From contig DAIUJM010000002.1 of the NCBI GenBank assembly GCA_036848695.1, forward strand, positions 1 through 48,487: a DNA stretch of 48,487 nt. The letters run 5' to 3'. Of the stretch, positions 13,172-37,558 are shown piece after piece; position 1 is the stretch's first letter, and each line of letters opens with the position of its first letter. Both the position numbers and the translations under genes were made by a program. The notes below the pieces were generated by a model that searched no databases, had not been told where the DNA came from, and was given only the letters and a program-made list of their open reading frames with translations. The stretch comes from Candidatus Saccharimonadota bacterium (lineage in GTDB: Bacteria > Patescibacteriota > Saccharimonadia > Saccharimonadales > UBA7683).

Positions 13172-13365
13172 TAGGCTGTGATATACTGCTTGTGTACCAA
13201 AAATGGTACGTACCTAAACAAAATAATATCAAGAGTGTGGCGAGAGAACTGACTCGTAGACCCACCAGCAACCTATACATGGAAGTTAGAAGTTAGAATA
13301 TAGAAATTAGAAATATTTTTCTAAGATCTAAGAACTAAGATCTTTCATCTTTTTATAAGGTGCTA

Positions 13366-13452
13366 CCTTCAGCCCGTACGGGGAAGATATAGCTAGTTTA
13401 CAAAACTCCTTATTCTGAACCATGGCGGGGCAGATAGAAAGGAGTTATTTTT
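13366..13452 (+). promoter_or_regulatory. structured 5' leader of metK with SD-sequestering helix (candidate riboswitch)
   Basis: AACTCCTT (13404-13411) is perfectly complementary to AAGGAGTT (13439-13446), which contains the metK Shine-Dalgarno. An inner TCTG/CAGA helix lies at 13414-13417 and 13431-13434. Confidence 0.35.
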
Positions 13453-14451
13453 ATGTCTGTAAAAAAATCAATTTATAAAACTGCTGAATCGGTTAGCCCA
13501 AAGCACCCCGATAAAATCTGTGATCAAATCTCTGATGCCATTTTAGATGCATATCTGGGCATAGACCCAAATGCCCGCGTTGCGGTAGAAGCAGTTGGAG
13601 GTCACGGCAAAGTCTTCATTGTTGGTGAAGTCTCGTCTTCCGCCCACCCAGAAATTGAACCAATTGCCAAGCGGCTAGCGCCAAATTGTGAAATTGAAGT
13701 TCGATTAGTAAAACAAAGTCCAGAAATTGCTCACGGTGTTGATACTGGCGGCGCTGGAGATCAAGGCATTATGGTCGGCTACGCTTGTAATGAAACACCG
13801 GAGCTACTACCTCTCGAAGTTGTGCTCGGTAGAAAGCTCAATCAAAACCTATATGCACGCTGGCCATATGATGGAAAAACACAGGTAACCCTAAAAGACG
13901 GTAAAATTACCTCTATAGTTGCAAGTTTTCAAAATGCCCCTTCGGCCGAACTTAAGCAAGCCGTCCAAACTTGGTTGAATCAGCAGAACAACGAACTCCA
14001 AACTGAAAACTACCAACTATTAGCTAACCCTGCCGGCGATTGGCATCAAGGCGGATTCGACGCCGACACAGGTTTAACAGGACGTAAACTTGTTGTCGAC
14101 AATTACGGTCCTAGTATTCCAATTGGCGGTGGTTGTTTTTCTGGGAAAGATCCTAGTAAAGTTGACCGTTCGGCCGCCTATATTGCCCGCAAAATCGCTA
14201 TAGATTACCTAAAAACTCGCAGCGCTAAAGAAGTCTTTGTGCACCTTGCCTACGCCATAGGGCGTGCTGAGCCGCTAGAGGCAACCGTTACCATAGACGG
14301 CAAGCAAGAGGTTGTAGAAGGCTACGATCTTACGCCAAAAGGGATTATTGAACAGCTGGATCTGAAAAAACCAATTTATGAACAGACTGCCCGTTACGGC
14401 CATTTTGGCCACCCGGGATTCGCTTGGGAACAGCTCAGTTCTAGTTCTTAG
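13453..14451 (+). CDS. metK: S-adenosylmethionine synthetase (compact form, 332 aa)
   Basis: ESVSPKHPDKICDQISDAILDA, GAGDQGIMVGYA, GLTGRKLVVDNYG, GGGCFSGKDPSKVDRSAAY and ARYGHFG motifs match MetK. Confidence 0.9.
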   Translation: MSVKKSIYKTAESVSPKHPDKICDQISDAILDAYLGIDPNARVAVEAVGGHGKVFIVGEVSSSAHPEIEPIAKRLAPNCEIEVRLVKQSPEIAHGVDTGGAGDQGIMVGYACNETPELLPLEVVLGRKLNQNLYARWPYDGKTQVTLKDGKITSIVASFQNAPSAELKQAVQTWLNQQNNELQTENYQLLANPAGDWHQGGFDADTGLTGRKLVVDNYGPSIPIGGGCFSGKDPSKVDRSAAYIARKIAIDYLKTRSAKEVFVHLAYAIGRAEPLEATVTIDGKQEVVEGYDLTPKGIIEQLDLKKPIYEQTARYGHFGHPGFAWEQLSSSS

Positions 14452-16175: not shown

Positions 16176-16871
16176 TTAGATATTACCTACATTATATTGC
16201 TTCTGAAGGAATTTTTCAATGATCTCAGACTGATCATCAGTAGGGTCATGAATGATTGAAATGGCATTACTCATGTCAGTTTGACCTCTTTTATTAAGCA
16301 CCCAAAATGAAAATTTACCATGGTCTTTAAAGCGCTTAAATAACAGTAATAAGTTGCCGTTGATCTTACTGCAGGTTTGCATGAATCCGCTACGCTCAAT
16401 AGCACGTTTCTTCACAAGCTCACGCGCCTGAGTTAGTTCCCATGCTTTTTGTGCATCTTGAACTATGTATATAACAGTCACGCGGTAACCCTTTTTTAAG
16501 CATAATTCTATGTTCTTGTATCCATTATCTTGCGAAAGAGTGCCATCAAATAGTATCGGGTAATTATTTTTCAGACAGTCTCTAAATATTCTTGTCACCA
16601 ATACATTTCCTGCACTACGAAAGGTGTAATAGTTTTCCGGTACATAGCCCTTTATGTATTCAACTAGCTTGTCGTGTTCAACCGGGACAAGACTAGGCAT
16701 GGCAAGCTTTATTGTATTTTCGGCAAACTCTGTTTTTCCCGCCCCTGGGATTCCAGCCATGAACACAGCCATTTTTTGTTGAGATACTTTATAGTTTTTG
16801 AAAAATTTATCAACAACTTCTTGCTGATTTTTCTTATTTTTTACCCACTTTTTAGCATCATCTTCGCTCAT
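16176..16871 (-). CDS. zeta-toxin-like P-loop kinase (AAA/zeta_toxin family)
   Basis: Walker A GIPGAGKTEFAE about 40 aa from the N-terminus, followed by VEHDKL and FDGTLS segments as in zeta/PezT-type kinases. Confidence 0.65.
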   Translation of the reverse strand: MSEDDAKKWVKNKKNQQEVVDKFFKNYKVSQQKMAVFMAGIPGAGKTEFAENTIKLAMPSLVPVEHDKLVEYIKGYVPENYYTFRSAGNVLVTRIFRDCLKNNYPILFDGTLSQDNGYKNIELCLKKGYRVTVIYIVQDAQKAWELTQARELVKKRAIERSGFMQTCSKINGNLLLLFKRFKDHGKFSFWVLNKRGQTDMSNAISIIHDPTDDQSEIIEKFLQKQYNVGNI

Positions 16872-16979
16872 GAAAATAATTATAGACTAAACCAACTCAG
16901 AAAAACTACCAATCAAACCAATTGATAGTATTACAATTAGTTCACTTAAGAACTTAGATCTAAGATCTAAGAACTTGCT

Positions 16980-17174
16980 CTAAAGGCCGAGGAGGCCGAG
17001 GACTGCATGCATAACATAAGCTGGCCAGACGAAGGATTTTAGTACTGCTACTATAAATTCGCCGAAGCCGTTAGAAGCTTGCACAAAATATACTAATGCG
17101 CCGATCCAGGCCACGAAAAACACATACCCCATCGGCCCACTCTTTTCAATCACCTTAGTTTTATTCATTCCCAT
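16980..17174 (-). CDS. small two-TM membrane protein (64 aa)
   Basis: AAGGAGG lies 5 nt upstream of ATG 17174. Two hydrophobic helices. Confidence 0.5.
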   Translation of the reverse strand: MGMNKTKVIEKSGPMGYVFFVAWIGALVYFVQASNGFGEFIVAVLKSFVWPAYVMHAVLGLLGL

Positions 17175-17255
17175 AACCACCTCCTTATTTACATTTTTAT
17201 AATACTCCTTTGATCAACAGTTTAAAATGAATCATCAAAATGCTATTGTTTATGT

Positions 17256-17900
17256 ATGAAGATGAAAGATCGAGCCAAGGCTGATCGGCCACGCGAAAAG
17301 CTGGCAATCAAAGGGGCTGCATCACTTTCTGACCTCGAATTACTCATGGCGTTGATTGGTAGTGGCAACAAACAGGCAGATGTTGGCAAGATTGCAAAAG
17401 ATACTCTCAAATTAATTCAAGCCCATGGGGCAGATATATCGTATGAGCAACTGCAGCAGGTGACTGGAATGGGATCAGCTAAAATTACTGAAATATTAGC
17501 AGCACTCGAGCTTTCTAAACGCTACCTTATAGATTCAGAACAACCAATTATAGATTCGCCAGAAAAAGCCGCAGAACAACTCGCCGACATTCGCGACAAA
17601 AAACAAGAATATTTTGTATGCCTTACTCTCGACGGCGCAAACCGACTAATCGCCAAACGCACAATCACCATCGGCACCCTCACTTCCAGCCTAGTTCACC
17701 CTCGTGAAGTCTTCGCCGACGCCATCGCTGACCGCGCCGCATCAATCATTATCGCTCATAATCATCCGAGTGGTAGCGTTAAGCCATCAACCGCAGATGT
17801 AGAAGTTACTAATCGCTTAACCAAAGCCGCACAGCTGGTGGGCATTAGCTTAGTAGATCATATTGTAGTTACAAAAACATCTTTTGCCTCTATACTATAG
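17256..17900 (+). CDS. radC: RadC-family JAB/MPN domain protein
   Basis: N-terminal HhH-like region and C-terminal JAMM motif (IIAHNHPSGSVKPSTAD). Confidence 0.85.
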   Translation: MKMKDRAKADRPREKLAIKGAASLSDLELLMALIGSGNKQADVGKIAKDTLKLIQAHGADISYEQLQQVTGMGSAKITEILAALELSKRYLIDSEQPIIDSPEKAAEQLADIRDKKQEYFVCLTLDGANRLIAKRTITIGTLTSSLVHPREVFADAIADRAASIIIAHNHPSGSVKPSTADVEVTNRLTKAAQLVGISLVDHIVVTKTSFASIL

Positions 17901-17902
17901 TT

Positions 17903-18565
17903 ATGTCGCACGCAAAAAATGAAAAAACCTATGCATTCATTGATAGCCAAAATTTAAACTTGGGTGTTAAAAATGATGTCATCAATGCCAAAGGCAAGGT
18001 GATTTATCGTGGTAAACAGCTTGACTATCGAAAATTTCGCCACTACCTTCGTGAAAAGTATAACGTCTCGCAAGCCTATATATTTATAGGTATGGTTCCT
18101 ACTAACAACAGCCTATATACATACTTGCAGCGATGCGGCTTTACGTTAGTTTTTAAAACCATTTCTACATATATGGATGAACGCGGTCAGACTATCACAA
18201 AGGGCAATGTCGATACTGATATTGTTTTATGGTCAGCAGGAAAGTTAGAGATGGAATATGACGCAGCAGTTTTTGTTTCCGGGGACGGAGATTTCTTAAG
18301 CCTTTACGAGTATATGGATGAACTTGGAAAATTGAAGAAAATTATTGTACCTAACCGAATGAGATATTCGAAGTTATTAAATTCTTTCAGAGATAGACTA
18401 GCATTCGTTGGAGATGTGCCTAAGTTGTTAAATGAAATTCAGACAAACAAAAAGACCAGGAGCAGCGGTCGGATCACATCCTTAGGCCAGCCTGGTCGTG
18501 GTGATACTAAGAATATAGCAAAAAAGACCAAAAAAGTCAATAGGAAGCGTAAGGGCAAACCATGA
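17903..18565 (+). CDS. NYN (LabA-like) domain putative ribonuclease with Lys/Arg-rich tail
   Basis: AFIDSQNL...[10 protein letters not shown]...VFVSGDGDF acidic motifs of the NYN/LabA fold. Starts 2 nt after the radC stop and overlaps hsdR by ATGA. Confidence 0.75.
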
Positions 18566-20433
18566 GCATTGACAAGTTAACAGAGATGGAGATTCGTACT
18601 CGACTCATCACTCCCGCCATTCAAAATGCGGGATGGCAGATTGATACAGTTCGTGAGGAATTTTATTATTTTACGCAAGGTAGAATCATTGTTCGTGGCA
18701 AGAAGTCTTTTCGTAAAGATCGAAAATTTGTAGATTACTTACTTTTCAGGCAGGACGGCACCAACACCCCCCTGGCTATTGTCGAAGCAAAAGACGGCAG
18801 TCACGACGTAGGTGACGGGATGCAACAGGCATTAGAGTACGCGGAGCATTTAGATGTACCATTCGTATTTACAAGCAACGGTGACGGCTTTGTAATGCAC
18901 GACAGAACCGACCAACTTGCGGAAGTCGAAAAAACTATATCGCTTAATGATTTTCCCAGACCCGACGAGCTAGATGCTCTGTATCGTTCTTGGCGCGGAA
19001 TAGAAAACGAATCCTCGCAAGAACTTCTCAATACCCCGTACCATGATGATGGTAGCGGTAAAAAGCCTCGTTACTATCAAAGAGTTGCAATAAATAGAAC
19101 AATTGAAGCAATAGCTCGTGGACAAAAAAGAATACTACTTGTTATGGCTACGGGTACAGGAAAGACATTCACTGCCGCACAAATCATCTGGAGATATTGG
19201 AAAGCCCCGACAGAAAAGCAAAAAAGAATTCTATTCCTGGCAGACAGAAACATTCTTGTCGATCAAACAAAATCCAATGATTTCAAGCATTTTGGCACTG
19301 CAATGACTAAAATCGAAAATCGAAATATCGATAAGTCGTACGAAATTTACCTGTCGCTCTACCAGGCAGTAACTGGCACAGAAGAACAAAGTAATATATA
19401 TAAACAATTTGATCGTGACTTTTTTGATCTTATTGTCATTGATGAATGTCACCGCGGAAGTTCCAAAGAAGACAGCTCATGGCGAAACATTCTGGAGTAC
19501 TTTAGTTCAGCGGTCCAGGTCGGCTTGACTGCGACACCAATTGAAACGAAAGAGGCCAGCAGCTCGCATTATTTTGGAGAGCCAATCTACACATACTCAT
19601 TAAAAGACGGCATAGATGACGGCTTCTTAGCACCATACAAAGTTATCCGAGTCGCAACTGATGTAGATACCTTCGGCTACCGACCAGAAGAAGGTGAGAC
19701 AGATGATGACGGCAACGAAATTGAAGACAAAGAATATACCAGTAAAGATATCGACCGGAATATAATTCTCCCTGAACGCGACAAAAAAGTCGCCCGGTAC
19801 ATCACAAAGTTTCTAGAAAAGACCGATCCTTATGCCAAAACAATTGTTTTCTGCCGAACCATTAATCACGCAACTCGTATGCGACAAGCGCTCATCAATG
19901 AGAACCCAGAACGAGTCCGCGAGAACAGTAAGTACGTGCTCAAGATTACAGGCGATGACCAAATTGGCAAAGCCGAACTGGATAGTTTTATAGACCCAGA
20001 ATCACGCTACCCTGTTATTGCGACAACTTCAAAGTTAATGACCACTGGTGTTGATGCGCAAACTTGCAAGGTGATAGTGCTCGACAGCAATATTGAAAGC
20101 ATGACGGAGTTTAAGCAAATTATTGGTCGCGGGACGCGCGTTCGTGAAGACTATGGCAAGACCTATTTCACAATTTTAGATTTCCGTAATGTCACTAAGC
20201 TGTTTGCAGACCCTGGTTTTGACGGTGACCCGGTCAAGGTATATGAACCTAAAAACGAAGATGAGTTTGACGAAACGATTGAAGATATTGAAAACGACAC
20301 CTACCCAGCGCCAGAAGAAAACACCGATTCTGATTTCGTGCATGATTCAGGCCCAGAAACGGAAGTATATATTCCAGATCCCCGTACAGATAAAGTAGAA
20401 CGCATTATCCATACCATTAGCGGTAGCAGGTAG
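18562..20433 (+). CDS. hsdR: type I restriction enzyme R subunit, N-terminal 623 aa (nuclease plus helicase core); truncated by a frameshift
   Basis: HSDR_N-type start ([14 protein letters not shown]), PD-(D/E)xK region (FVDYLLF...VEAKD), helicase motifs [24 protein letters not shown]. Confidence 0.85.
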
Positions 20434-20450
20434 AAATAGTCGGCGAGAGA

Positions 20451-20969
20451 GTGCAAATTATTGATGCTGAGGGTAAGTTAATAACCGAAAGTCTCACTGA
20501 CTACACAAAACGCAACATCCTTGGAGAATACGCAACGCTCGACGAGTTTCTGCAAACTTGGCAAAACGCGAAGCAGCGATATTATATCCTTGAGGAGTTA
20601 GAAAACAAAGGTGTACCACTTTCCGAATTAAGAGAAAAATTTGGCGGTGACATGGATCTATTTGATCTTGTACTACACATAGCTTATGACCAGAAGCCAC
20701 TCAAGCGTTCCGATCGCGCAGAGTCTGTGCGGCGCAGCAAGTTCTTTAATGAATACCAAGGTAGGGCGCGTGAAGTCCTAGAGGCGCTACTGGATAAATA
20801 CGAATCAGCAAGTCTCAAAACAATTGAAGACCCTTCAATCCTACGGCTAAAGCCAATAGATCAGTTTGGGACACCAGTAGAAATAGCGCAATTGTTCGGT
20901 GGGATTGAACATTATCAAACGGCAGTTAATCAGCTTGAAGAAAAGATATACGAAAGAGCGGGGGCTTAA
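20451..20969 (+). CDS. hsdR: detached C-terminal domain of HsdR (EcoEI R-type C-terminal domain) in a different frame
   Basis: This frame is open from 20427 ([27 protein letters not shown]...), continuing the HsdR architecture. It ends 0 nt before the hsdM ATG. Confidence 0.6.
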   Translation: MQIIDAEGKLITESLTDYTKRNILGEYATLDEFLQTWQNAKQRYYILEELENKGVPLSELREKFGGDMDLFDLVLHIAYDQKPLKRSDRAESVRRSKFFNEYQGRAREVLEALLDKYESASLKTIEDPSILRLKPIDQFGTPVEIAQLFGGIEHYQTAVNQLEEKIYERAGA

Positions 20970-22412
20970 ATGATCACATCAGGACTTATTAAAACTATTC
21001 AAGACATCATGAGAAAAGACGAAGGTGTGGATGGTGATGCGCAGCGGCTTAGTCAGTTAGTCTGGCTTATTTTTCTTAAAGTCTTAGATGACAGCGAAAA
21101 GCAAAAACAGTTTTTAGATAGTAGTTATGCTTCAGTCATCCCAGTCGAGTATCAGTGGCATACCTGGGCGGCTGACCCGGCGGGAATTACTGGCGATGCA
21201 CTACTAGACTTTATAAACAACGAACTCTTCCCGGCACTAAGTCAGCTGCAATCTGCTGGCAATAAGCGAGCCGACATCATCCGTGCTGCCTTTGAGGGGT
21301 CGTATAACTATATGAAGAACGGTACGCTTCTGCGTCAGGTAATTAACAAGATAAATGAGATAAATTTTAACTCTACCGATGATCGCCACAGCTTTAATGA
21401 TATTTACGAAAACCTGCTGGCTAGTCTACAGAGCGCCGGCAACGCTGGTGAATACTACACACCACGACCCGTCACAAAGTTTATTGTTGAGATGGTTAAC
21501 CCTCAACTTGGTGAAAAAATATTTGACCCTGCTTGCGGTACTGGCGGTTTTTTAAGTAACGCTATTGAACACATGCGCCCACAGGCGAAAACCCCAGAAG
21601 ACCTCAAACTACTTGAAGCCTCCATCTACGGTGTTGAAAAAAAGCAACTGCCGTATTTGCTCTGTAGTACCAACATGATTCTGCACGGCATAGAAGAACC
21701 TTACAACATTCGTCACGACAACACACTGCGCAAGCCACTAACTAGCTACGGTCCTGCAGACTATGTAGATTGCATCACCGCCAACCCACCATTTGGTGGT
21801 AAAGAAGAAGACGGTATTGAAGATAACTTCCCAAGCTGGGGTCGCACCCGAGAAACCGCCGATCTCTTTTTGCAACTTTTTGTTCGTTTACTCAAACCTG
21901 GCGGCCGCGCCGGAATTGTACTACCAGACGGCACGTTATTCGGTGAAGGCGTGAAGACACGCATAAAAGAACACTTACTAGAAGAATGTAATCTCCACAC
22001 AATCGTTCGCTTACCAAATAGCGTATTTGCTCCCTACACATCTATCGCTACAAACCTGCTATTTTTCACCAAAGGCGAGCCAACCAAAGAGATCTGGTAC
22101 TACGAACACCGCTTGCCGGAAGGTGTAAAAGCCTACAACAAAACCAAACCAATCTGTATTGAAGAATTTGATGAAATTAAATCTTGGTGGAATGACCGTA
22201 AGGAAAATGAAGGCGCCTGGAAAGTCAGCATAGATGAAATCAAAAAGCGCGGCTATAACCTCGACATAAAAAACCCAAATATCGTAGAGGTAGACGAACT
22301 TAACCCAGAAGAAGTATTAAAAGATTATCGCGCCAAACAAGCCGAAGTTAAAGAGATACTAGAAAAAATCAAAGCAGAACTCACCGAGGCACTCGCACAC
22401 CATGACCGTTAA
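20970..22412 (+). CDS. hsdM: type I R-M system DNA methyltransferase subunit M (N6-adenine)
   Basis: HsdM N-terminal domain, AdoMet motif FDPACGTGGFL, catalytic NPPFG. Confidence 0.95.
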   Translation: MITSGLIKTIQDIMRKDEGVDGDAQRLSQLVWLIFLKVLDDSEKQKQFLDSSYASVIPVEYQWHTWAADPAGITGDALLDFINNELFPALSQLQSAGNKRADIIRAAFEGSYNYMKNGTLLRQVINKINEINFNSTDDRHSFNDIYENLLASLQSAGNAGEYYTPRPVTKFIVEMVNPQLGEKIFDPACGTGGFLSNAIEHMRPQAKTPEDLKLLEASIYGVEKKQLPYLLCSTNMILHGIEEPYNIRHDNTLRKPLTSYGPADYVDCITANPPFGGKEEDGIEDNFPSWGRTRETADLFLQLFVRLLKPGGRAGIVLPDGTLFGEGVKTRIKEHLLEECNLHTIVRLPNSVFAPYTSIATNLLFFTKGEPTKEIWYYEHRLPEGVKAYNKTKPICIEEFDEIKSWWNDRKENEGAWKVSIDEIKKRGYNLDIKNPNIVEVDELNPEEVLKDYRAKQAEVKEILEKIKAELTEALAHHDR

Positions 22413-24048
22413 AGACCTCCGTACTCTAGTAGATAGCCTAGAAGAGTACATTCACGTACCCGGCGGCATCGAACGCCTCAAAAAAACCATTCTCCACTTA
22501 GCAGTTTCAGGTAAGCTGGTTCCACAAGACCCATTCGAAGGAACCGGCGAAGAGCTTTATAAACAAATCCAAGTCGAAAAGCAAAAGCGTATAGCTGAAG
22601 GCAAAGTAAAAAAACAAAAACCATTATTAGAAATAGCAAATGATGAAATTCCATTTGAAATCCCACAATCTTGGAAATGGGTGAGACCACAGGAGGTGGG
22701 CCAAATCAACCCAAGAAATTATGTCGACGATTCCATTGATATTGGTTTCATCCCAATGACAAAAGTGAGTGAAAAATATGGTGCCGCTCCTAAGTATGAA
22801 GTTCGTAAGTGGATTGAAGTAAAAAAGAACTTTACCCATTTTGCTGATGGCGACGTTGTTCTTGCAAAAATTACACCATGCTTTGAAAATTCAAAAGCAG
22901 GAATCATCGTAAGTTTACCGAATCATTATGGTGCTGGTACTACAGAACTGCATGTTTTTAGGCAAGATAGCAAATTAATACTTCCTAAGTACTCCTACTT
23001 ATGGTTCAAAAATCCAACCTATCTTGAAACCGGTAAAACTAAGATGACCGGTTCTGCAGGACAGAAGCGTGTTTCTACAGAGTTCTTTGCAAACTTTCCT
23101 ATGCCACTTCCGCCCTCTAGTGAGCAGCTTAGGATAGTTGAAAAAGTTGATGCTATATTTGCGCTGATTGATGAACTTGCAGAAAAATATGTCGTGGAAC
23201 AGAAAGAGCGTGAAATGCTCGTTGGTTCATCGCTCGCACATTTAGCAAAAGGTGACGGAAACCTTGCGCTCAAATATCTACTAGAAATAATACGTACCAA
23301 ATCAGACGCAGCGCAACTCCGCAAAACGATCCTCCATCTCGCTGTCTCTGGCCAACTCGTCCCACAAGACCCATCAGAAGGAACCGGCGAAGAACTCTTT
23401 GCCAAAATCCAAGCCGAAAAAGCCAACCTAACCAAAGAAGGGAAGCTAAAAAAGCAAAAACCCCTTTCCGAAATCACCGAATCCGAAGTCCCATTCCAAA
23501 TCCCCAAAACCTGGAAATGGGCCAGATTAGGTGAAATCTCCAATATCTTTAATGGAAATAGCATCAACGCAAGCGAAAAGAAGTTGAAGTATGAGAAGGT
23601 AGCAGAAGGCTACCCCTATCTTGGCACAAAGGATATTGGTTATGGGTTCGATAATATCGATTATGATAATGGTGTAAAAACACCGTATGACGAAGGTAAA
23701 TTTACTGTGATACCAAAAGGCACGGTTTTGATTTGTTCTGAAGGTGGGAGTGCTGGGAAAAAGTGCGGAATCGTTGATCGGGACGTAACTTTTGGCAACA
23801 AAATGTACGCATTTAACGCTTATGGCAACAATATGCTTCCGGATTTCGTACTATACAACTACTTAACAAAGCACTTCCATAATCACTTTATTGGCAAAAT
23901 GACAGGCATAATTGGTGGCATTTCTGTAGCAAACTTTAAAGAATTGATCATCCCGCTTCCACCGCAAGATGAACAAATTCGCATCGTCCAAAAAACCACT
24001 CAGCTTTTAGATTTAGTAGACGAACTAGAGAAACACCTAGAGAGGTAA
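22402..24048 (+). CDS. hsdS: type I R-M system specificity subunit S
   Basis: Two target-recognition domains separated by duplicated conserved helices (LKKTILHLAVSGKLVPQDP... and LRKTILHLAVSGQLVPQDP...). 11 nt overlap with hsdM. Confidence 0.9.
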   Translation: MTVKDLRTLVDSLEEYIHVPGGIERLKKTILHLAVSGKLVPQDPFEGTGEELYKQIQVEKQKRIAEGKVKKQKPLLEIANDEIPFEIPQSWKWVRPQEVGQINPRNYVDDSIDIGFIPMTKVSEKYGAAPKYEVRKWIEVKKNFTHFADGDVVLAKITPCFENSKAGIIVSLPNHYGAGTTELHVFRQDSKLILPKYSYLWFKNPTYLETGKTKMTGSAGQKRVSTEFFANFPMPLPPSSEQLRIVEKVDAIFALIDELAEKYVVEQKEREMLVGSSLAHLAKGDGNLALKYLLEIIRTKSDAAQLRKTILHLAVSGQLVPQDPSEGTGEELFAKIQAEKANLTKEGKLKKQKPLSEITESEVPFQIPKTWKWARLGEISNIFNGNSINASEKKLKYEKVAEGYPYLGTKDIGYGFDNIDYDNGVKTPYDEGKFTVIPKGTVLICSEGGSAGKKCGIVDRDVTFGNKMYAFNAYGNNMLPDFVLYNYLTKHFHNHFIGKMTGIIGGISVANFKELIIPLPPQDEQIRIVQKTTQLLDLVDELEKHLER

Positions 24049-24054
24049 TTCGGT

Positions 24055-24318
24055 TTATTGAACGCTTCCGAGCGAAGGACCTTTAATCGCGTATTTTAGC
24101 TTAACGTCGGTAGTATTTATGTATGTATGTAGACCACTACCCTGATTTGCTAGTGTTTTCATTTGATTAATGGCAGTCTGGCTAGCACTCGCGTGAGTGT
24201 ACTTGTAGAATCTAATGGCACTATATTTATTCGGCTTAAATTCAACTATGATGTAATCGCCTCCGATCATGTAGTTTAGGACACCTGATTCTCCGCTAAG
24301 ATTTGCATAAGATTCCAT
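24055..24318 (-). CDS. KTSC-domain-like small protein (87 aa)
   Basis: IIVEFKPNKYSAIRFYKYTHASASQTAINQMKTLANQGSGLHTYIN resembles the KTSC (lysyl-tRNA synthetase C-terminal-like) domain pattern. Confidence 0.5.
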   Translation of the reverse strand: MESYANLSGESGVLNYMIGGDYIIVEFKPNKYSAIRFYKYTHASASQTAINQMKTLANQGSGLHTYINTTDVKLKYAIKGPSLGSVQ

Positions 24319-24655: not shown

Positions 24656-24863
24656 AACAGTCCTTTCGTTGATTAAAGTTGATATATTTTGGAAATTTAG
24701 GTTTTCTCGCAGTAAACGCAATCTCCTCCGAACCCCATTACATCCCACCTTTGTTTTGTAGTTCTACCATACTATAGCGTAAAAAGAGATATCTTGTCTA
24801 GTATCTGCCGCCATTTTCACTGAAAAGTACTAAAGTGCACGAATTTTTGATACAATATAAATA

Positions 24864-25508
24864 ATGCATACAGTTCAACAAAAACTATTAGATCTGGCAG
24901 AATCAAAAGATTTGTCACGAATTCCACTCCGCAAGATAGCTGTTCTTATAGGCACACCCAGTATGAGTCCTGGTGTTTTACAGCATCACTTCGCGCAATT
25001 AGAAAAGAAGAAACTTCTATTTATCGACCGCAAGGTGAAGACGCAGCAGCTGGGCGCTGATTTGAAGGATGATAGGTTCTTCGCGATACCTATTGTTGGC
25101 ATGGCAAGCTGTGGCCCGGCTAATCAATTTGCGGACGAGGCAACCGAAGGCTATCTTCATGTGTCGAAAAGCAGCCTGAGGGCAAAAGGAAAATTATTTG
25201 CCGTACGTGCAGCGGGTGATTCTATGAATGACGCACGTGTTGCAACGCCAAATGGTGAGCTAGCCTCAATAAATGATGGTGACTATGCGATAGTTGACAT
25301 TTTCTATGTATCAGTTGAAGACAATATAGGAAGATATATCGTCTCAATAATCAATGGGATGGCTAATATCAAAAAACTTGCCAAGAGAGCATATGATTAT
25401 GCGCTTCTTTCAGAGTCCTTAAGTATGGAAAAATATCCACCGATTATTATTCATGAAGATGATAACTATTTGATCAATGGGCGTGTAATAGCAGTAGTGA
25501 AGGGATAA
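24864..25508 (+). CDS. lexA: LexA-like repressor (winged-helix N-domain plus S24 peptidase)
   Basis: S24 catalytic Ser in AAGDSMND, Lys in ANIKKL, and a candidate self-cleavage site in [11 protein letters not shown] aligned to the LexA VAAGEP region. Confidence 0.75.
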
Positions 25509-25510
25509 TT

Positions 25511-26731
25511 ATGAAACAAGTCGTGTGTCCGCATTGTAAGAAGGCTTTCAAGATTGATGAGGCGGGGTTTGCTGATATTTTAAAGCAGGTTCGAGATGGT
25601 GAATTTGAGAGTGAGCTTCATGAGCGCTTGGCATTGCTTGAAAAAGAAAAAGAAAGTGCGGTTCAGTTGGCTGAAGCCAAGACTAAGAACGAGCTACAGG
25701 CTGAGGCGGCGAAGAAAGATGCTGAAATTGCCAAGCTGAAGGCGGATAAAGAGGCGGAAGTTGCACGGCTTCAGGCGAAGATTGAAGCATCTGAGACAGA
25801 GAAGAAGCTGGCTTTGACTGAAGCGGTGAATAAGTTGGAGCGAGAGCGTGATGAGCTTAGTAATAAGCTAGAGTATAAGGAATCAGAGAAGCAGTTGCTG
25901 GAATCTTCACTGAAGGTTAAGTATGAGGCTGAACTGAGATCAAAAGATGAAACGATTGCACTGTATAAAGATATGAAGGCCAAGCTTTCTACTAAGATGC
26001 TCGGTGAAACACTTGAGCAGCACTGCGAGATCGAATTTAATAAAATCCGCGCCAGCGCCTTTCCAAATGCCTATTTTGAAAAAGACAACGATGCCAGCAC
26101 TGGTACTAAAGGTGACTACGTGTACCGCGAAACTGATCAAGCTGGCAATGAAATCATCTCCATAATGTTTGAAATGAAAAACGAAGGTGATGAAACTGCC
26201 ACAAAAAAGAAGAACGAGGATTTCTTAAGCAAACTTGATGACGACCGTAGAAAGAAGAACTGTGAATTTGCAGTACTGGTTACCCTGCTGGAAGCCGATA
26301 ACGAACTATACAATACAGGCATTGTGGATGTTTCGCACAAATACCCAAAGATGTACGTTATCCGACCTCAATTCTTCATACAAATTATCACTTTACTCCG
26401 AAACGCTGCCATGAATTCTATGCAGTATAAAGCCGAGCTTGCATTGGTTAAGACACAAAATATAGATGTCACTAACTTTGAAAACCAGTTAAATGACTTC
26501 CGGGATTCTTTCGGCCGCAATTACCGGTTAGCATCGGAAAAATTCAAGACTGCTATTGAAAGCATTGACAAGTCTATTGTTCAGTTGCAGAAAACCAAAG
26601 AAAACCTATTGCGCTCAGAAGACAATCTGCGAATCGCTAACAATAAAGCCGATGAGCTCACTGTCAAAAAACTCACCCGAAGCAATCCAACTATGGCTGC
26701 CAAGTTCGCTGATCTAGAAAGTAATGAATAA
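25511..26731 (+). CDS. DUF2130-type protein: N-terminal Zn-ribbon, long coiled coil, C-terminal RmuC-like putative nuclease region
   Basis: VCPHCKKAF start, about 130 aa of E/K-rich heptads, then GDYVYRE...[10 protein letters not shown] (a D...ExK-like pattern). Starts 2 nt after the lexA-like stop. Confidence 0.65.
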
Positions 26732-31261: not shown

Positions 31262-32053
31262 CTATTTACTCTTCGCCTGCTTCATATGCTCTAACGTCAG
31301 CTGTGTGCGAGCCTTCGCATATTCGCAGTGCTCACAGGGTCCACCCATTGCCGCGGTTCCCACAGCGGGCATTTCTTCGCTATCTAAACACGCCTTCATA
31401 TCTTTAATGGTTTGCTCGACCCATTCAGAATTACCGTTGTGTGCAAAAACGTGAGTCTCGAACTTTAAAATGTTATCGAACTTTTCGTGTGCCCAGCTAC
31501 CAGTTGCGTAGACAAAATAACCGGTGTTACTTACAGGAAAGCCATTTTTAGCCAGCAACCATTGGTAAACTTCCATCTGGCGGCGATAGGTATCGTGCCA
31601 GGAGCCTTCTTCTCTTAATTCTTTGACCGGCGCGTCTTTGGCAGTCGCTTTGTAGTCAACCACGATTAGCTCACCCTTAGGGTTCACCCAAACATCATCT
31701 ACCGCTCCAAAAATCAGTAAGTTTGCTTCTTCAAATAGGTACGAAACGCCAGAAAAATTGTGTCTCCAGGTATCCATTTCTTCATGCTGATATGGAATTG
31801 CGTCAACTTTGAATTGTTTCATTAACGGATGTGGTTGCTGCTTCTCCCGGTAAACATCGAATTCTTTTTTAAATAGCTCATCAATCGCTTTGTTAATGTT
31901 AAATGGTGGACTACTCGGGCGCTTAATTCCTTTTATTGCCTCTAGCCAGAAGCAACGCTGACATTGAGTAAAAAGTTCTATTTTTGAACGAGAAAGCCTA
32001 TACGGCGCAGTCGCTTTTTTGTTATATAAACCCCGGTATCCAATTTGTGACAT
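31262..32053 (-). CDS. PD-(D/E)XK nuclease family protein with Cas4/AddB-like cysteine cluster
   Basis: FGAVDDVW...LIVVDYKAT (D...D/ExK), N-terminal CQRC, and C-terminal C...CEHC cysteines. Start placed at MSQIGYRG because the longer ORF runs through a repeat. Confidence 0.65.
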   Translation of the reverse strand: MSQIGYRGLYNKKATAPYRLSRSKIELFTQCQRCFWLEAIKGIKRPSSPPFNINKAIDELFKKEFDVYREKQQPHPLMKQFKVDAIPYQHEEMDTWRHNFSGVSYLFEEANLLIFGAVDDVWVNPKGELIVVDYKATAKDAPVKELREEGSWHDTYRRQMEVYQWLLAKNGFPVSNTGYFVYATGSWAHEKFDNILKFETHVFAHNGNSEWVEQTIKDMKACLDSEEMPAVGTAAMGGPCEHCEYAKARTQLTLEHMKQAKSK

Positions 32054-32289
32054 GGTGTTAGTATATAGTTTCTTGTTACTAGGTTCTAGTATGGGAATAG
32101 TTCGCTGTTCGCAGATCAGACCATCGCGCCCGTGGTGGTCCCGCCTGTCTGATCGAGCCACCTGTCTTTCTGACAAGAAGGCCAGGCAGAACAGGCAGGC
32201 GGGACGGGGTGGACTGCCTGGGGTGCGGTGGCTTTGTCTAAGAACTAAGAACTACAAACTAAGAACTATCTCGGGGTATACTAAATACC

Positions 32290-35961: not shown

Positions 35962-37047
35962 ATGGAAATGCTCTTGATTGTTTTGTTGGTGTTTGTGGTG
36001 CTGGGATTTATGGCTGTAATTTTTGTATTGAATAAGAAGCTTTCAGGCGTGGGTGATGACCAGGCTTCGCAGATGCTAAAAACAGATATAGATAATTTGA
36101 ATCGTGGGGTTGGGGAGCTTAAAGAAAGTCTTCAAGAAAATATCAGTCAAAAACTGCATCAGAATCAAGTGCAAACAAATGAATCTATTCAGCGCCAGTT
36201 TGCACAGTCGGCAAAGATAATTGCTGATGTTACTCAGCGCCTCACAAAGCTAGACGAAACAAACAGGCGAGTGGTAGATGTTGCTGATGAGCTCAAGACT
36301 TTGCAAAATGTTCTGCAAAACCCAAAACAGCGCGGTGTAGTAGGGGAATATTATCTACAATCAGTTCTTGAAAACGTTATGCCCCCCGGTAAATTTCAGA
36401 TGCAGTATAAGTTTGAAGACGGCGAAACGGTAGATGCGGTTATATTTTTAGATCGCAATCAAGTTTTACCGATAGATTCTAAGTTTAGCCTAGAAAATTA
36501 TAATCGCTTGATTGAAGAAGGTGACAAGGCCACCAAAGAGGCAATTGTTAAAAAGTTCAAAGTAGATCTGAAGAATCGTATAGACGAAACAAGTAAATAT
36601 ATTCGCCCGAACGAGAACACTATGGATTTTGCCTTCATGTTTATACCTTCGGAATCTTTGTATTACGACTTACTAATAAACAAGGTCGGTACTACGGCAA
36701 CAAATTCCAGAGATCTTATTGAATACGCCTTTCAAGAAAAACATGTAATTATTGTCAGCCCAACTAGCTTCATGGCCTACCTCCAGACGGTTCTACAGGG
36801 TCTCAGAAGCCTTCAGATTGAAGAGCAGGCTAAAGATATACAAAAGCGTGTCGGCGAGCTTGGGCGGCACATTGGTGCCTACGACGCGTTTATGCAAAAG
36901 CTTGGTGGTAGCTTAGGTACTACCGTCAACCATTACAACAATGCCCACAAAGAACTCAAGAAGATCGACAAAGATATAGTAAAGATCGCCCAAACTACAC
37001 CGTCAATAGAACCACTGCTCATCGAAAAACCGACCGAAGATGAATAG
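35962..37047 (+). CDS. rmuC: DNA recombination protein RmuC
   Basis: N-terminal TM helix, coiled coil, and conserved RmuC core (QRGVVGEYYL, DAVIFLD..LPIDSKF, FMFIPSESLY). Confidence 0.85.
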   Translation: MEMLLIVLLVFVVLGFMAVIFVLNKKLSGVGDDQASQMLKTDIDNLNRGVGELKESLQENISQKLHQNQVQTNESIQRQFAQSAKIIADVTQRLTKLDETNRRVVDVADELKTLQNVLQNPKQRGVVGEYYLQSVLENVMPPGKFQMQYKFEDGETVDAVIFLDRNQVLPIDSKFSLENYNRLIEEGDKATKEAIVKKFKVDLKNRIDETSKYIRPNENTMDFAFMFIPSESLYYDLLINKVGTTATNSRDLIEYAFQEKHVIIVSPTSFMAYLQTVLQGLRSLQIEEQAKDIQKRVGELGRHIGAYDAFMQKLGGSLGTTVNHYNNAHKELKKIDKDIVKIAQTTPSIEPLLIEKPTEDE

Positions 37048-37558
37048 AATAGTTATTCTCGGCAATTCTGGTACTGGCAAAAGTACGCTTGCCAGAGAGC
37101 TTTCGAGTCTACTGAATATTCCCGTCTACCACACTGATAAGATCTATCACACGACTCAGTGGCCGGATAACGAGTCTGAAAAAATTAAGATATGGGAAGA
37201 GAAGCTGAAAAAACCGTTGAGCGAAAGTAGCTGGATCTTCGATGGCGGTAACAGAAGAATGCTTGATCTTAAGTTAAGCAAGGCTGACACAGTAATATTT
37301 TTAGATTACAACAGGCTGATTAGCTTCCAGCACCTAATTAAACGAAGATTCATGTACCGTAATACCAAACGCCCTGATATGCCTGACGATTGGCAAGAAA
37401 AAATAGATCTGAAATTTTGGAAGCTTGTATGGAACTTTAATAATAAATATCGTCCAGGCATAATAGAAGCGATAGATCGGCACCGCGGGGATCTAGATGT
37501 ATTTGTCTTTAAATCTCCAAGACAAACCAAAGCATTCGTTAACTCATATAAAAATTAA
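37040..37558 (+). CDS. P-loop NTPase/kinase (adenylate-kinase-like, topology-modulation-protein type)
   Basis: RIVILGNSGTGKSTLAREL at the N-terminus. 172 aa. 8 nt overlap with rmuC. Confidence 0.55.
   Translation: MNRIVILGNSGTGKSTLARELSSLLNIPVYHTDKIYHTTQWPDNESEKIKIWEEKLKKPLSESSWIFDGGNRRMLDLKLSKADTVIFLDYNRLISFQHLIKRRFMYRNTKRPDMPDDWQEKIDLKFWKLVWNFNNKYRPGIIEAIDRHRGDLDVFVFKSPRQTKAFVNSYKN

Follow-up and report, generated by a model that had tools for sequence, protein, structure and literature searches.

A LexA-like repressor gene and a DUF2130 gene in tandem on a Saccharibacteria chromosome: a probable SOS-controlled operon

The stretch of DNA analyzed here (48,487 nt, contig DAIUJM010000002.1 of assembly GCA_036848695.1; hereafter, the window) comes from a Saccharibacteria (Patescibacteria) bacterium of activated sludge or freshwater, and near its middle a gene for a LexA-like protein with an S24 autopeptidase domain (gene 1) is followed directly by a gene of the DUF2130 family (gene 2). 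We think it reasonably probable that the two form an operon in which an SOS repressor controls its own synthesis together with that of a cargo gene, a PD-(D/E)xK nuclease of the kind resident in defence islands, and that the link of DUF2130 with LexA is not intrinsic. The window is of chromosomal origin, with bipA, metK behind an S-adenosylmethionine (SAM) riboswitch, transporters, and rmuC all present, and the GC content is about 0.43 and flat across the region. A preliminary description had proposed either that gene 1 is the organism's SOS repressor, which would place the DUF2130 family in the DNA damage regulon, or that the pair is a damage- or phage-triggered repressor-nuclease defence module. 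The features of the pair are as follows.

24794-24807, + strand: candidate operator, TTGTCTAG-TATCTG, at a location matching the TGTCAA-N3-TGTCAA tandem of other lexA genes of the candidate phyla radiation (CPR); putative function
24848-24856, + strand: probable extended -10 element, TGaTACAAT, read by eye, 7 nt before the ATG
24864-25508, + strand: lexA-like gene, 214 aa, with an N-terminal winged-helix domain and a C-terminal S24 autopeptidase domain
25110-25115, 25221-25223, and 25371-25373, + strand: gene 1 codons for Cys83-Gly84, Ser120, and Lys170
25497-25513, + strand: gene junction, with a Shine-Dalgarno-like GTGAAGGGA in the lexA 3' end (25497-25505), TAA (25506-25508), tt (25509-25510), and the ATG at 25511
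25511-26731, + strand: full-length DUF2130 gene, 406 aa, with a CxxC knuckle, a long helix, a PD-(D/E)xK core, and C-terminal helices
Gene 2 layout: helix, residues 30-159; PD-(D/E)xK core, residues 168-285; C-terminal helices, residues 286-404
25526-25537, + strand: gene 2 CxxC knuckle (C6/C9), in a small N-terminal beta-hairpin of the AlphaFold model
26114-26116, 26171-26173, and 26177-26179, + strand: gene 2 codons for the core residues D202, E221, and K223

The LexA-like S24 protein and its promoter region

Gene 1 belongs to a family of 208- to 221-aa proteins found in Saccharibacteria, Paceibacteria, Parcubacteria, and a few other metagenome-assembled genomes. Its product matches Pfam Peptidase_S24 (PF00717; E 5.7e-14, residues 76-209), and the profile of a 17-member family alignment (41-100% identity) aligns with Escherichia coli LexA over residues 21-212 (E 9e-13), an alignment that takes in most of the probable winged-helix N-terminal domain of the preliminary description. 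In this alignment Cys83-Gly84 pairs with Ala84-Gly85 of LexA, Ser120 with Ser119, and Lys170 with Lys156; C83, G84, S120 (in GDSM), and K170 (in IKK) are invariant in the family, bearing out the catalytic residues and the Cys-Gly dipeptide noted previously. As expected of LexA, the protein has a C-terminal S24 domain in which a Ser would act as nucleophile and a Lys as general base, and it departs from LexA at the scissile Ala-Gly, where Cys-Gly is invariant. UmuD is known to cleave itself at Cys24-Gly25, and self-cleavage of the gene 1 product remains plausible because Cys-Gly is the UmuD-type dipeptide. The family profile also matches UmuD' (E 1e-10), and gene 1 scores 38 bits against the UmuD model NF007621, below its cut-off of 110. 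We rejected an assignment to UmuD: gene 1 encodes 214 aa with a winged helix-turn-helix (wHTH) domain, versus about 140 aa without a DNA-binding domain, and its downstream gene is DUF2130, not umuC. Some family members match PF01726, and some carry the label "LexA" at JGI. A phmmer search of both proteins against PDB sequences gave nothing useful.

From these comparisons gene 1 is best read as the LexA-type SOS repressor of its lineage, because its family shows, in various members, the TGTCAA repeat of lexA promoters, a divergent recA, a DinD gene behind, and a conserved, housekeeping synteny. The gene 1 family occupies a conserved position in Paceibacteria, with xfp-ackA divergent and mscL downstream, and the lexA locus is flanked by housekeeping genes. 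In the locus L002 (compared loci are cited by number), the S24 protein is 74% identical to that of the window and the next gene encodes DinD (NF008573; 351 bits against a cut-off of 242). In E. coli, dinD is a textbook member of the LexA regulon. L003 has lexA, then a short DinD, then DUF2130, and in L170 a Bro-N protein takes the slot behind lexA. At five loci recA is the divergent neighbour of the lexA-like gene and shares the TGTCAA repeat, with endonuclease III downstream. Contigs binned as Chitinophagaceae or Bacteroidota (L059, L064, L067, L071, and L072) have a CPR-type LexA divergent from recA, with endonuclease III downstream; because Bacteroidetes are reported to have noncanonical LexA proteins (PMC8565304), we take these loci to be misbinned or an exception.

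The direct repeat TGTCAA-N3-TGTCAA lies upstream of 38 lexA-like genes, and a matrix built from the 38 sites finds only about 10 comparable matches in the other 1 Mb of fetched sequence. The tandem belongs to the lexA promoter, since it is present with or without a divergent upstream gene, and direct-repeat LexA boxes are known in Alphaproteobacteria (PMC8565304). A search for exact palindromes in 80 lexA upstream regions gave nothing above shuffled controls, the signal being the direct repeat instead. In Saccharibacteria, TTGTC(T/A)AGT is invariant in seven lexA upstream regions. Further copies of the candidate operator across the window occur at chance level, and a repeat search of the window's intergenic region found none. 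Relatives keep TAYAAT at the same distance from the ATG, and because the -10 element stands 7 nt from the start codon, here as in those relatives, the lexA mRNA is probably leaderless. We note that many Paceibacteria and Parcubacteria loci have a perfect DnaA-box-like CTGTGGATAAC between the TGTCAA tandem and the lexA -35, 40-60 nt upstream of the ATG (L014, L017, L018, L020, L026, L034, L037, L041, L049, and others).

DUF2130 as cargo of the lexA operon

The two genes are 2 nt apart, as first described, and the gap is 2-3 nt in L001 and L172. Because a 2-nt gap leaves no space for a promoter, DUF2130 appears to have none of its own here, and on this arrangement we consider it to be co-transcribed with lexA in this genome. 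One 151-nt metatranscriptome contig (25448-25598) crosses the junction, in weak agreement; public RNA runs contained at most 10% of the sequence words and yielded only four short contigs.

The gene 2 product matches Pfam DUF2130 (PF09903) at E 4.9e-89 over residues 133-390, with 298.4 bits against a gathering threshold of 26.7 and coverage of profile positions 3-254 of 255. In the AlphaFold model, the helix of residues 30-159 accounts for the coiled coil of about 130 residues in the preliminary description. It is followed by an alpha-beta-beta-beta-alpha-beta core typical of the PD-(D/E)xK superfamily (residues 168-258: helix 168-180; strands 187-192, 202-208, and 214-223; helix 235-248; strand 253-258), and the PD-(D/E)xK domain modelled alone has a pLDDT of 85 and a pTM of 0.83. 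D202, E221, and K223 (GDY...FEMK) are invariant across 46 homologues; they make up the D...ExK-like pattern of the preliminary description and would form the active site. The assignment agrees with published remote-homology work, which already places DUF2130, a family of unknown function, in the PD-(D/E)XK superfamily (PMC3424549). The best fold matches in PDB are PD-(D/E)xK enzymes, among them restriction endonucleases (BstEII, AspBHI, and MspJI), DdmD, MUS81, Can2, and SPARDA nucleases, all with weak E values (at best 3e-3); the DUF2130 profile searched against PDB gave coiled-coil noise only.

Two other proposals for gene 2 fared less well. The suggested zinc ribbon reduces to a single CxxC knuckle, with 16.7 bits against Zn_ribbon_4 (cut-off, 30.3). 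C6, C9, H171, C172, and C251 are likewise invariant among the homologues, and H171, C172, and C251 could be further metal ligands beside the CxxC. The likeness to RmuC survives in layout only: the rmuC gene of the window (35962-37047) is genuine (Pfam PF02646, E 5e-58), as had been recognized, and DUF2130 has no detectable sequence or profile similarity to it (hhalign probability 0.2%, BLASTP E 2.2) and no PF02646 match. The DUF2130 family is large: it comprises over 8000 clusters at 90% identity, and clustering at 50% identity with E<=1e-30 leaves 722. The window protein is about 58% identical to copies on Bradyrhizobium, Lactococcus, Ralstonia, and Arthrobacter plasmids; it is a separate, horizontally mobile, and unusually conserved gene. 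The literature searched contained nothing on DUF2130 function or on a link to LexA or SOS.

How often the two genes travel together was determined from both sides. For LexA, scanning genomes at species level identified 80 loci related through gene 1, in 80 different assemblies, and five loci were looked up in addition (L172, L084, L086, L088, and L170). Among the 80, DUF2130 follows lexA in L001, L003, and L004-L012 (near-identical, and counted as one lineage), and in none of the 68 more distant loci. The added L172 has lexA-DUF2130, and L084 has lexA, a 151-aa open reading frame (ORF), and DUF2130; L086 is without DUF2130, and L088 has two other small ORFs behind lexA. DUF2130 is thus in the lexA operon in about 6 of 10 Saccharibacteria lineages (the window, L001, L003, L172, L084, and the L004-12/L139 clade). 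On the DUF2130 side, an S24 gene stands in front at one of the 65 metagenomic loci (GC 0.30-0.71) whose upstream sequence was long enough to tell, at none of three plasmid loci, and at none of three loci on CPR-size contigs of 0.9-1.2 Mb whose DUF2130 proteins are 76-79% identical. Co-occurrence of DUF2130 with S24 repressors, which the preliminary description suggested checking, thus holds in those Saccharibacteria lineages and is rare among metagenomic DUF2130 genes in general. In a neighbour-joining tree of DUF2130, lexA-linked genes fall in at least two separate clades with unlinked genes of other contexts between them, and in the S24 tree linked lineages are separated by unlinked ones. 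Because linked genes are scattered on both of these distance trees, the operon probably arose more than once, or was captured and then replaced several times.

These distributions bear on whether the linkage means anything at all. It might be incidental: in these small genomes defence and mobile genes would integrate chiefly near lexA, DUF2130 would be a promoter-less cassette settling behind any gene it meets, and LexA control would be an unselected by-product. In keeping with this, unlinked DUF2130 genes have an upstream gene on the same strand in 68 of 83 loci, with a gap of <=20 nt in 26 of those 68, and these upstream genes are mutually unrelated (Old, PDC-S06, restriction-modification [R-M] genes, transporters, and glycosidases). 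Moreover, lexA in Saccharibacteria has type I, type IIG, or MmeI-type R-M genes or Old for neighbours, and in some eight loci of Paceibacteria type a DNA methyltransferase gene, similarly oriented, stands directly behind the lexA-like gene (N4/N6 methyltransferases in L014, L015, L060, and L080; C5 methyltransferases in L026, L034, L037, and L045), a pattern that points to an R-M integration spot beside lexA throughout CPR. Nonetheless, we regard pure coincidence as unlikely. First, lexA is one of about 1000 genes, yet DUF2130 is found behind it in 6 of about 10 lineages, in separate clades of both trees. Second, two more arrangements hold both genes within 3 kb, L183 and L173, the latter with mod-res-DUF2130 and an S24 gene 2.6 kb off. 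Third, the 2-3 nt spacing is kept at 75% LexA identity.

The opposite possibility is that the pair is a dedicated defence or abortive-infection module, in which the S24 protein is a private sensor-repressor of DUF2130, cleaved upon phage-induced damage, and not an SOS regulator. The company that DUF2130 keeps lends this some appeal. P2 Old-type nucleases stand ahead of it in seven loci with gaps of +/-3 nt (PADLOC Old, E 5e-57) and PDC-S06/PrrC-like ATPases in three, and type I, III, and IIG restriction enzymes and GmrSD are also among its upstream neighbours; DUF2130 is a defence-island resident across phyla, riding at the tail of other operons. In the window, R-M, zeta-toxin, RadC, and NYN genes adjoin the pair, and in L183 a LexA gene, a cyclic-oligonucleotide-based antiphage signalling system (CBASS) operon, and DUF2130 stand in series. 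However, the S24 family is without DUF2130 in all 68 distant loci and in four Saccharibacteria lineages, it lies in housekeeping synteny, beside recA or followed by DinD, and DUF2130 lacks an S24 gene in 64 of 65 metagenomic loci. Neither protein has a PADLOC model: in PADLOC-DB 2.0 the S24 protein has no match, and the sole DUF2130 match is a coiled-coil artefact (JetC, E 0.063). A dedicated module is thus improbable in our view, and of the second option of the preliminary description what stands is the defence-island residence of DUF2130 and the position of lexA near R-M and Old genes.

Some of these neighbourhoods merit description in their own right. The tight pairs (gaps of -3 to +33 nt) include Old-type genes in L134, L176, L177, L179, L180, L184, and L185 and PDC-S06/PrrC-like AAA_13 ATPases ahead of DUF2130 in L120, L137, and L141, and it is possible that DUF2130 is an unrecognized accessory or effector of the Old and PDC-S06 genes. 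L183 (3285-7098) has, on one strand and with overlaps or short gaps, a canonical LexA (S24 plus PF01726), then the 1TM effector (PADLOC, E 1.7e-55) and the cyclase (E 1.7e-180) of a CBASS, and finally DUF2130, and looks like a LexA-fronted defence operon. The neighbours of DUF2130 hint at a role either in break processing (R-M, LigD, Gam, and SRAP) or in defence (Old, PDC-S06, and CBASS).

Two further explanations seem very improbable, and both were rejected on distribution and context. In gene order, 2-nt spacing, and probable autoregulation, the pair resembles a type II toxin-antitoxin operon, with an autoregulating DNA-binding antitoxin upstream and a nuclease toxin downstream, but the pairing is not obligate in either direction, genome-size contigs (0.9-1.2 Mb) stably maintain DUF2130 genes that stand alone and have promoters of their own, and the S24 domain is a self-cleaving peptidase rather than a toxin-binding fold. 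Equally remote is the idea that gene 1 encodes a CI-like repressor belonging to a prophage or integrative element, with DUF2130 as an element gene. S24 repressors are common in prophages, and DUF2130, although rare there, is present at 20 loci on IMG/VR contigs; however, genes for phage structural proteins, integrases, or phage replication are absent from the roughly 10 kb around the pair, the N-terminal domain is probably a LexA-type winged helix and has no Pfam HTH_3 match such as CI-type repressors have, DUF2130 is without a match in 50,697 GenBank phage records, and the GC content does not change across the region.

Several observations weigh against an SOS-controlled operon. Gene 1 scores 43.5 bits against the NCBIfam lexA model TIGR00498 (cut-off, 110.95) and has no PF01726 match at E<=0.1; the window holds neither recA nor another SOS gene, and although no second S24 gene is found among its ORFs, these cover 48 kb of the genome and a second LexA may be encoded elsewhere. 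The candidate operator is a predicted site that resembles the CPR lexA tandem in its first half only, lies about 45 nt upstream of the lexA -10, and overlaps the -35 of a divergent promoter-like site (see below). The junction-spanning RNA contig is single and short and could reflect DNA carry-over, the fold-search scores are weak, about 4 of 10 Saccharibacteria lineages are without DUF2130 behind lexA, and where DUF2130 stands unlinked, on the contigs of 0.9-1.2 Mb, it comes with a promoter of its own and without an operator-like repeat.

On balance we favour the SOS-controlled operon. The analysis establishes the structures of the genes, their families, the conserved residues, and how the linkage is distributed; the identity of the operator, RecA-dependent cleavage, induction by damage, and the activity and substrate of the nuclease are predictions. 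The operon would work as follows. The most likely binding sites of the LexA-type repressor are TGTC(A/T)A repeats within the promoter region of its own gene. Upon DNA damage, RecA-single-stranded-DNA filaments would trigger its self-cleavage at Cys83-Gly84 through the Ser120/Lys170 dyad, derepressing the lexA-DUF2130 operon, and because DUF2130 appears to be co-transcribed and to lack its own promoter, it would be produced when LexA is inactivated. The product would be a Mg2+-dependent PD-(D/E)xK nuclease (D202, E221, and K223) borne by a long coiled-coil stalk, and the CxxC knuckle would lie at the N terminus. The mobile DUF2130 gene would have landed in the slot behind lexA in several Saccharibacteria lineages, with DinD or Bro-N there in sister lineages. 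Since DUF2130 occupies the cargo slot of the lexA operon, it should be damage-inducible in this and some related lineages. Of the first option of the preliminary description, a LexA-type repressor with DUF2130 as its cargo here is thus retained; the extension to the DUF2130 family at large is not, because most copies are unlinked to lexA and without an operator-like repeat.

A broader proposal, which we hold only tentatively and consider rather doubtful, is that DUF2130 is a generic promoter-less effector nuclease of an unrecognized defence family, combined with a variety of sensors encoded ahead of it (Old, PDC-S06/PrrC-like ATPases, R-M enzymes, and CBASS) and repeatedly wired to LexA in Saccharibacteria, where the trigger would be RecA-sensed damage or phage replication. 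If so, ultra-small episymbiotic bacteria would have an SOS-gated defence or suicide nuclease, whereas if DUF2130 is merely a repair nuclease, the operon is a routine extension of the SOS regulon. In either case, the locus is one of few handles on transcriptional control and the DNA damage response in Saccharibacteria, which are mostly uncultured, and DUF2130, with no known function, gains LexA as a testable regulatory input. Since it follows Old, PDC-S06, R-M, and CBASS genes in different phyla, including it in phage-challenge screens seems reasonable. The pairing is real but limited to some lineages, and we regard it as a useful lead rather than a new system.

Neighbouring genes in the window

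The region upstream of the operon has the following features.

18562-24048, + strand: type I R-M island adjoining the operon (hsdR split as 18562-20433 and 20451-20969; hsdM, 20970-22412; hsdS, 22402-24048)
24055-24318, - strand: small ORF of 87 aa, with homologues in the same position upstream of lexA in L004-L012
24440-24655, - strand: Cys/His-rich ORF of 72 aa, without a family match
24657-24765, - strand: conserved noncoding leader, common to L001-3, L084, L086, L170, and L172 and preceding different small ORFs
24771-24800, - strand: divergent promoter-like site, TAGACA-18-TATAGT, which would drive the leader and small ORFs

The leader is about 100 nt long (GGTGG...GGGGTTCGG...TTGCGTTTACTGCGAGAAAAC) and lies downstream of the TAGACA-18-TATAGT promoter-like site; the small ORFs after it differ among loci, encoding DUF3892, DUF2188, or the Cys/His-rich 72-aa protein. 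No Rfam family matches the leader, and the stability of its predicted fold does not exceed that of shuffled sequences. In L172, a KTSC-family ORF takes the position of the 87-aa ORF.

The type I restriction subunit (18562-20969) is encoded in two ORFs, of 623 aa (HSDR_N, ResIII, and Helicase_C) and 172 aa (EcoEI_R_C), and may be frameshifted or inactivated. Ahead of the R-M genes (16176-18565) are a zeta-toxin kinase (16176-16871, - strand), RadC/JAB (17256-17900), and an NYN nuclease (17903-18565); RadC adjoins the operon in L172 too. The SAM (S-box) riboswitch at 13223-13393 (46.3 bits; gathering score, 44.4) lies directly 5' of metK (13453-14451). Other nuclease genes in the window are a PDDEXK_1/Cas4-like gene at 31262-32176 and the RmuC region at 35962-37558, in which a small P-loop kinase-like ORF begins within the last part of the RmuC gene.

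Comparison with known systems

Gene 1 and E. coli LexA (PDB 1JHH, 3JSO, and 7B5G) are alike in layout, a wHTH domain (a probable one in gene 1) followed by an S24 domain, with the Ser/Lys dyad and cleavage loop aligning residue for residue; gene 1 is probably autoregulated, and recA or DinD is adjacent to it in related genomes. Gene 1 differs in having Cys-Gly rather than Ala-Gly, in falling below the TIGR00498 cut-off, and in its undetected PF01726 domain, and its candidate operator is a TGTC(A/T)A direct repeat rather than CTGT-N8-ACAG, with an mRNA that is probably leaderless. With UmuD (PDB 1UMU and 8GMT) it shares the S24 fold, as reflected in the profile match; however, UmuD is without a DNA-binding domain and partners UmuC, whereas gene 1 has an 80-residue wHTH domain and no umuC nearby.

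As in E. coli lexA-dinF and in lexA-dinD (L002 and L003), a cargo gene placed directly behind lexA would inherit LexA control, although the cargo here is DUF2130, for which no SOS link is reported in the literature searched. CBASS controlled by CapH/CapP is a defence operon induced by DNA damage via a cleavable repressor, and the present operon, like L183, similarly has a predicted damage-responsive repressor ahead of defence-type genes. Here, however, repressor and protease would be a single genome-wide LexA, and the operon has no cyclase or known defence system.

RmuC and DUF2130 both have a coiled coil followed by a PD-(D/E)xK-superfamily domain, and both are listed in that superfamily (PMC3424549), but DUF2130 differs at both ends, with the CxxC knuckle at its N terminus and helices that fill about 120 residues at its C terminus. 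The closest parallels in gene arrangement are the Old and PDC-S06 loci, in which DUF2130 family members (53-64% identical) lie 3 nt behind, or overlap, Old-like genes (7 loci) or PDC-S06 (3 loci). In the operon described here, that upstream position is taken by lexA, and an Old homologue stands a few genes further upstream only in L172 and L084.

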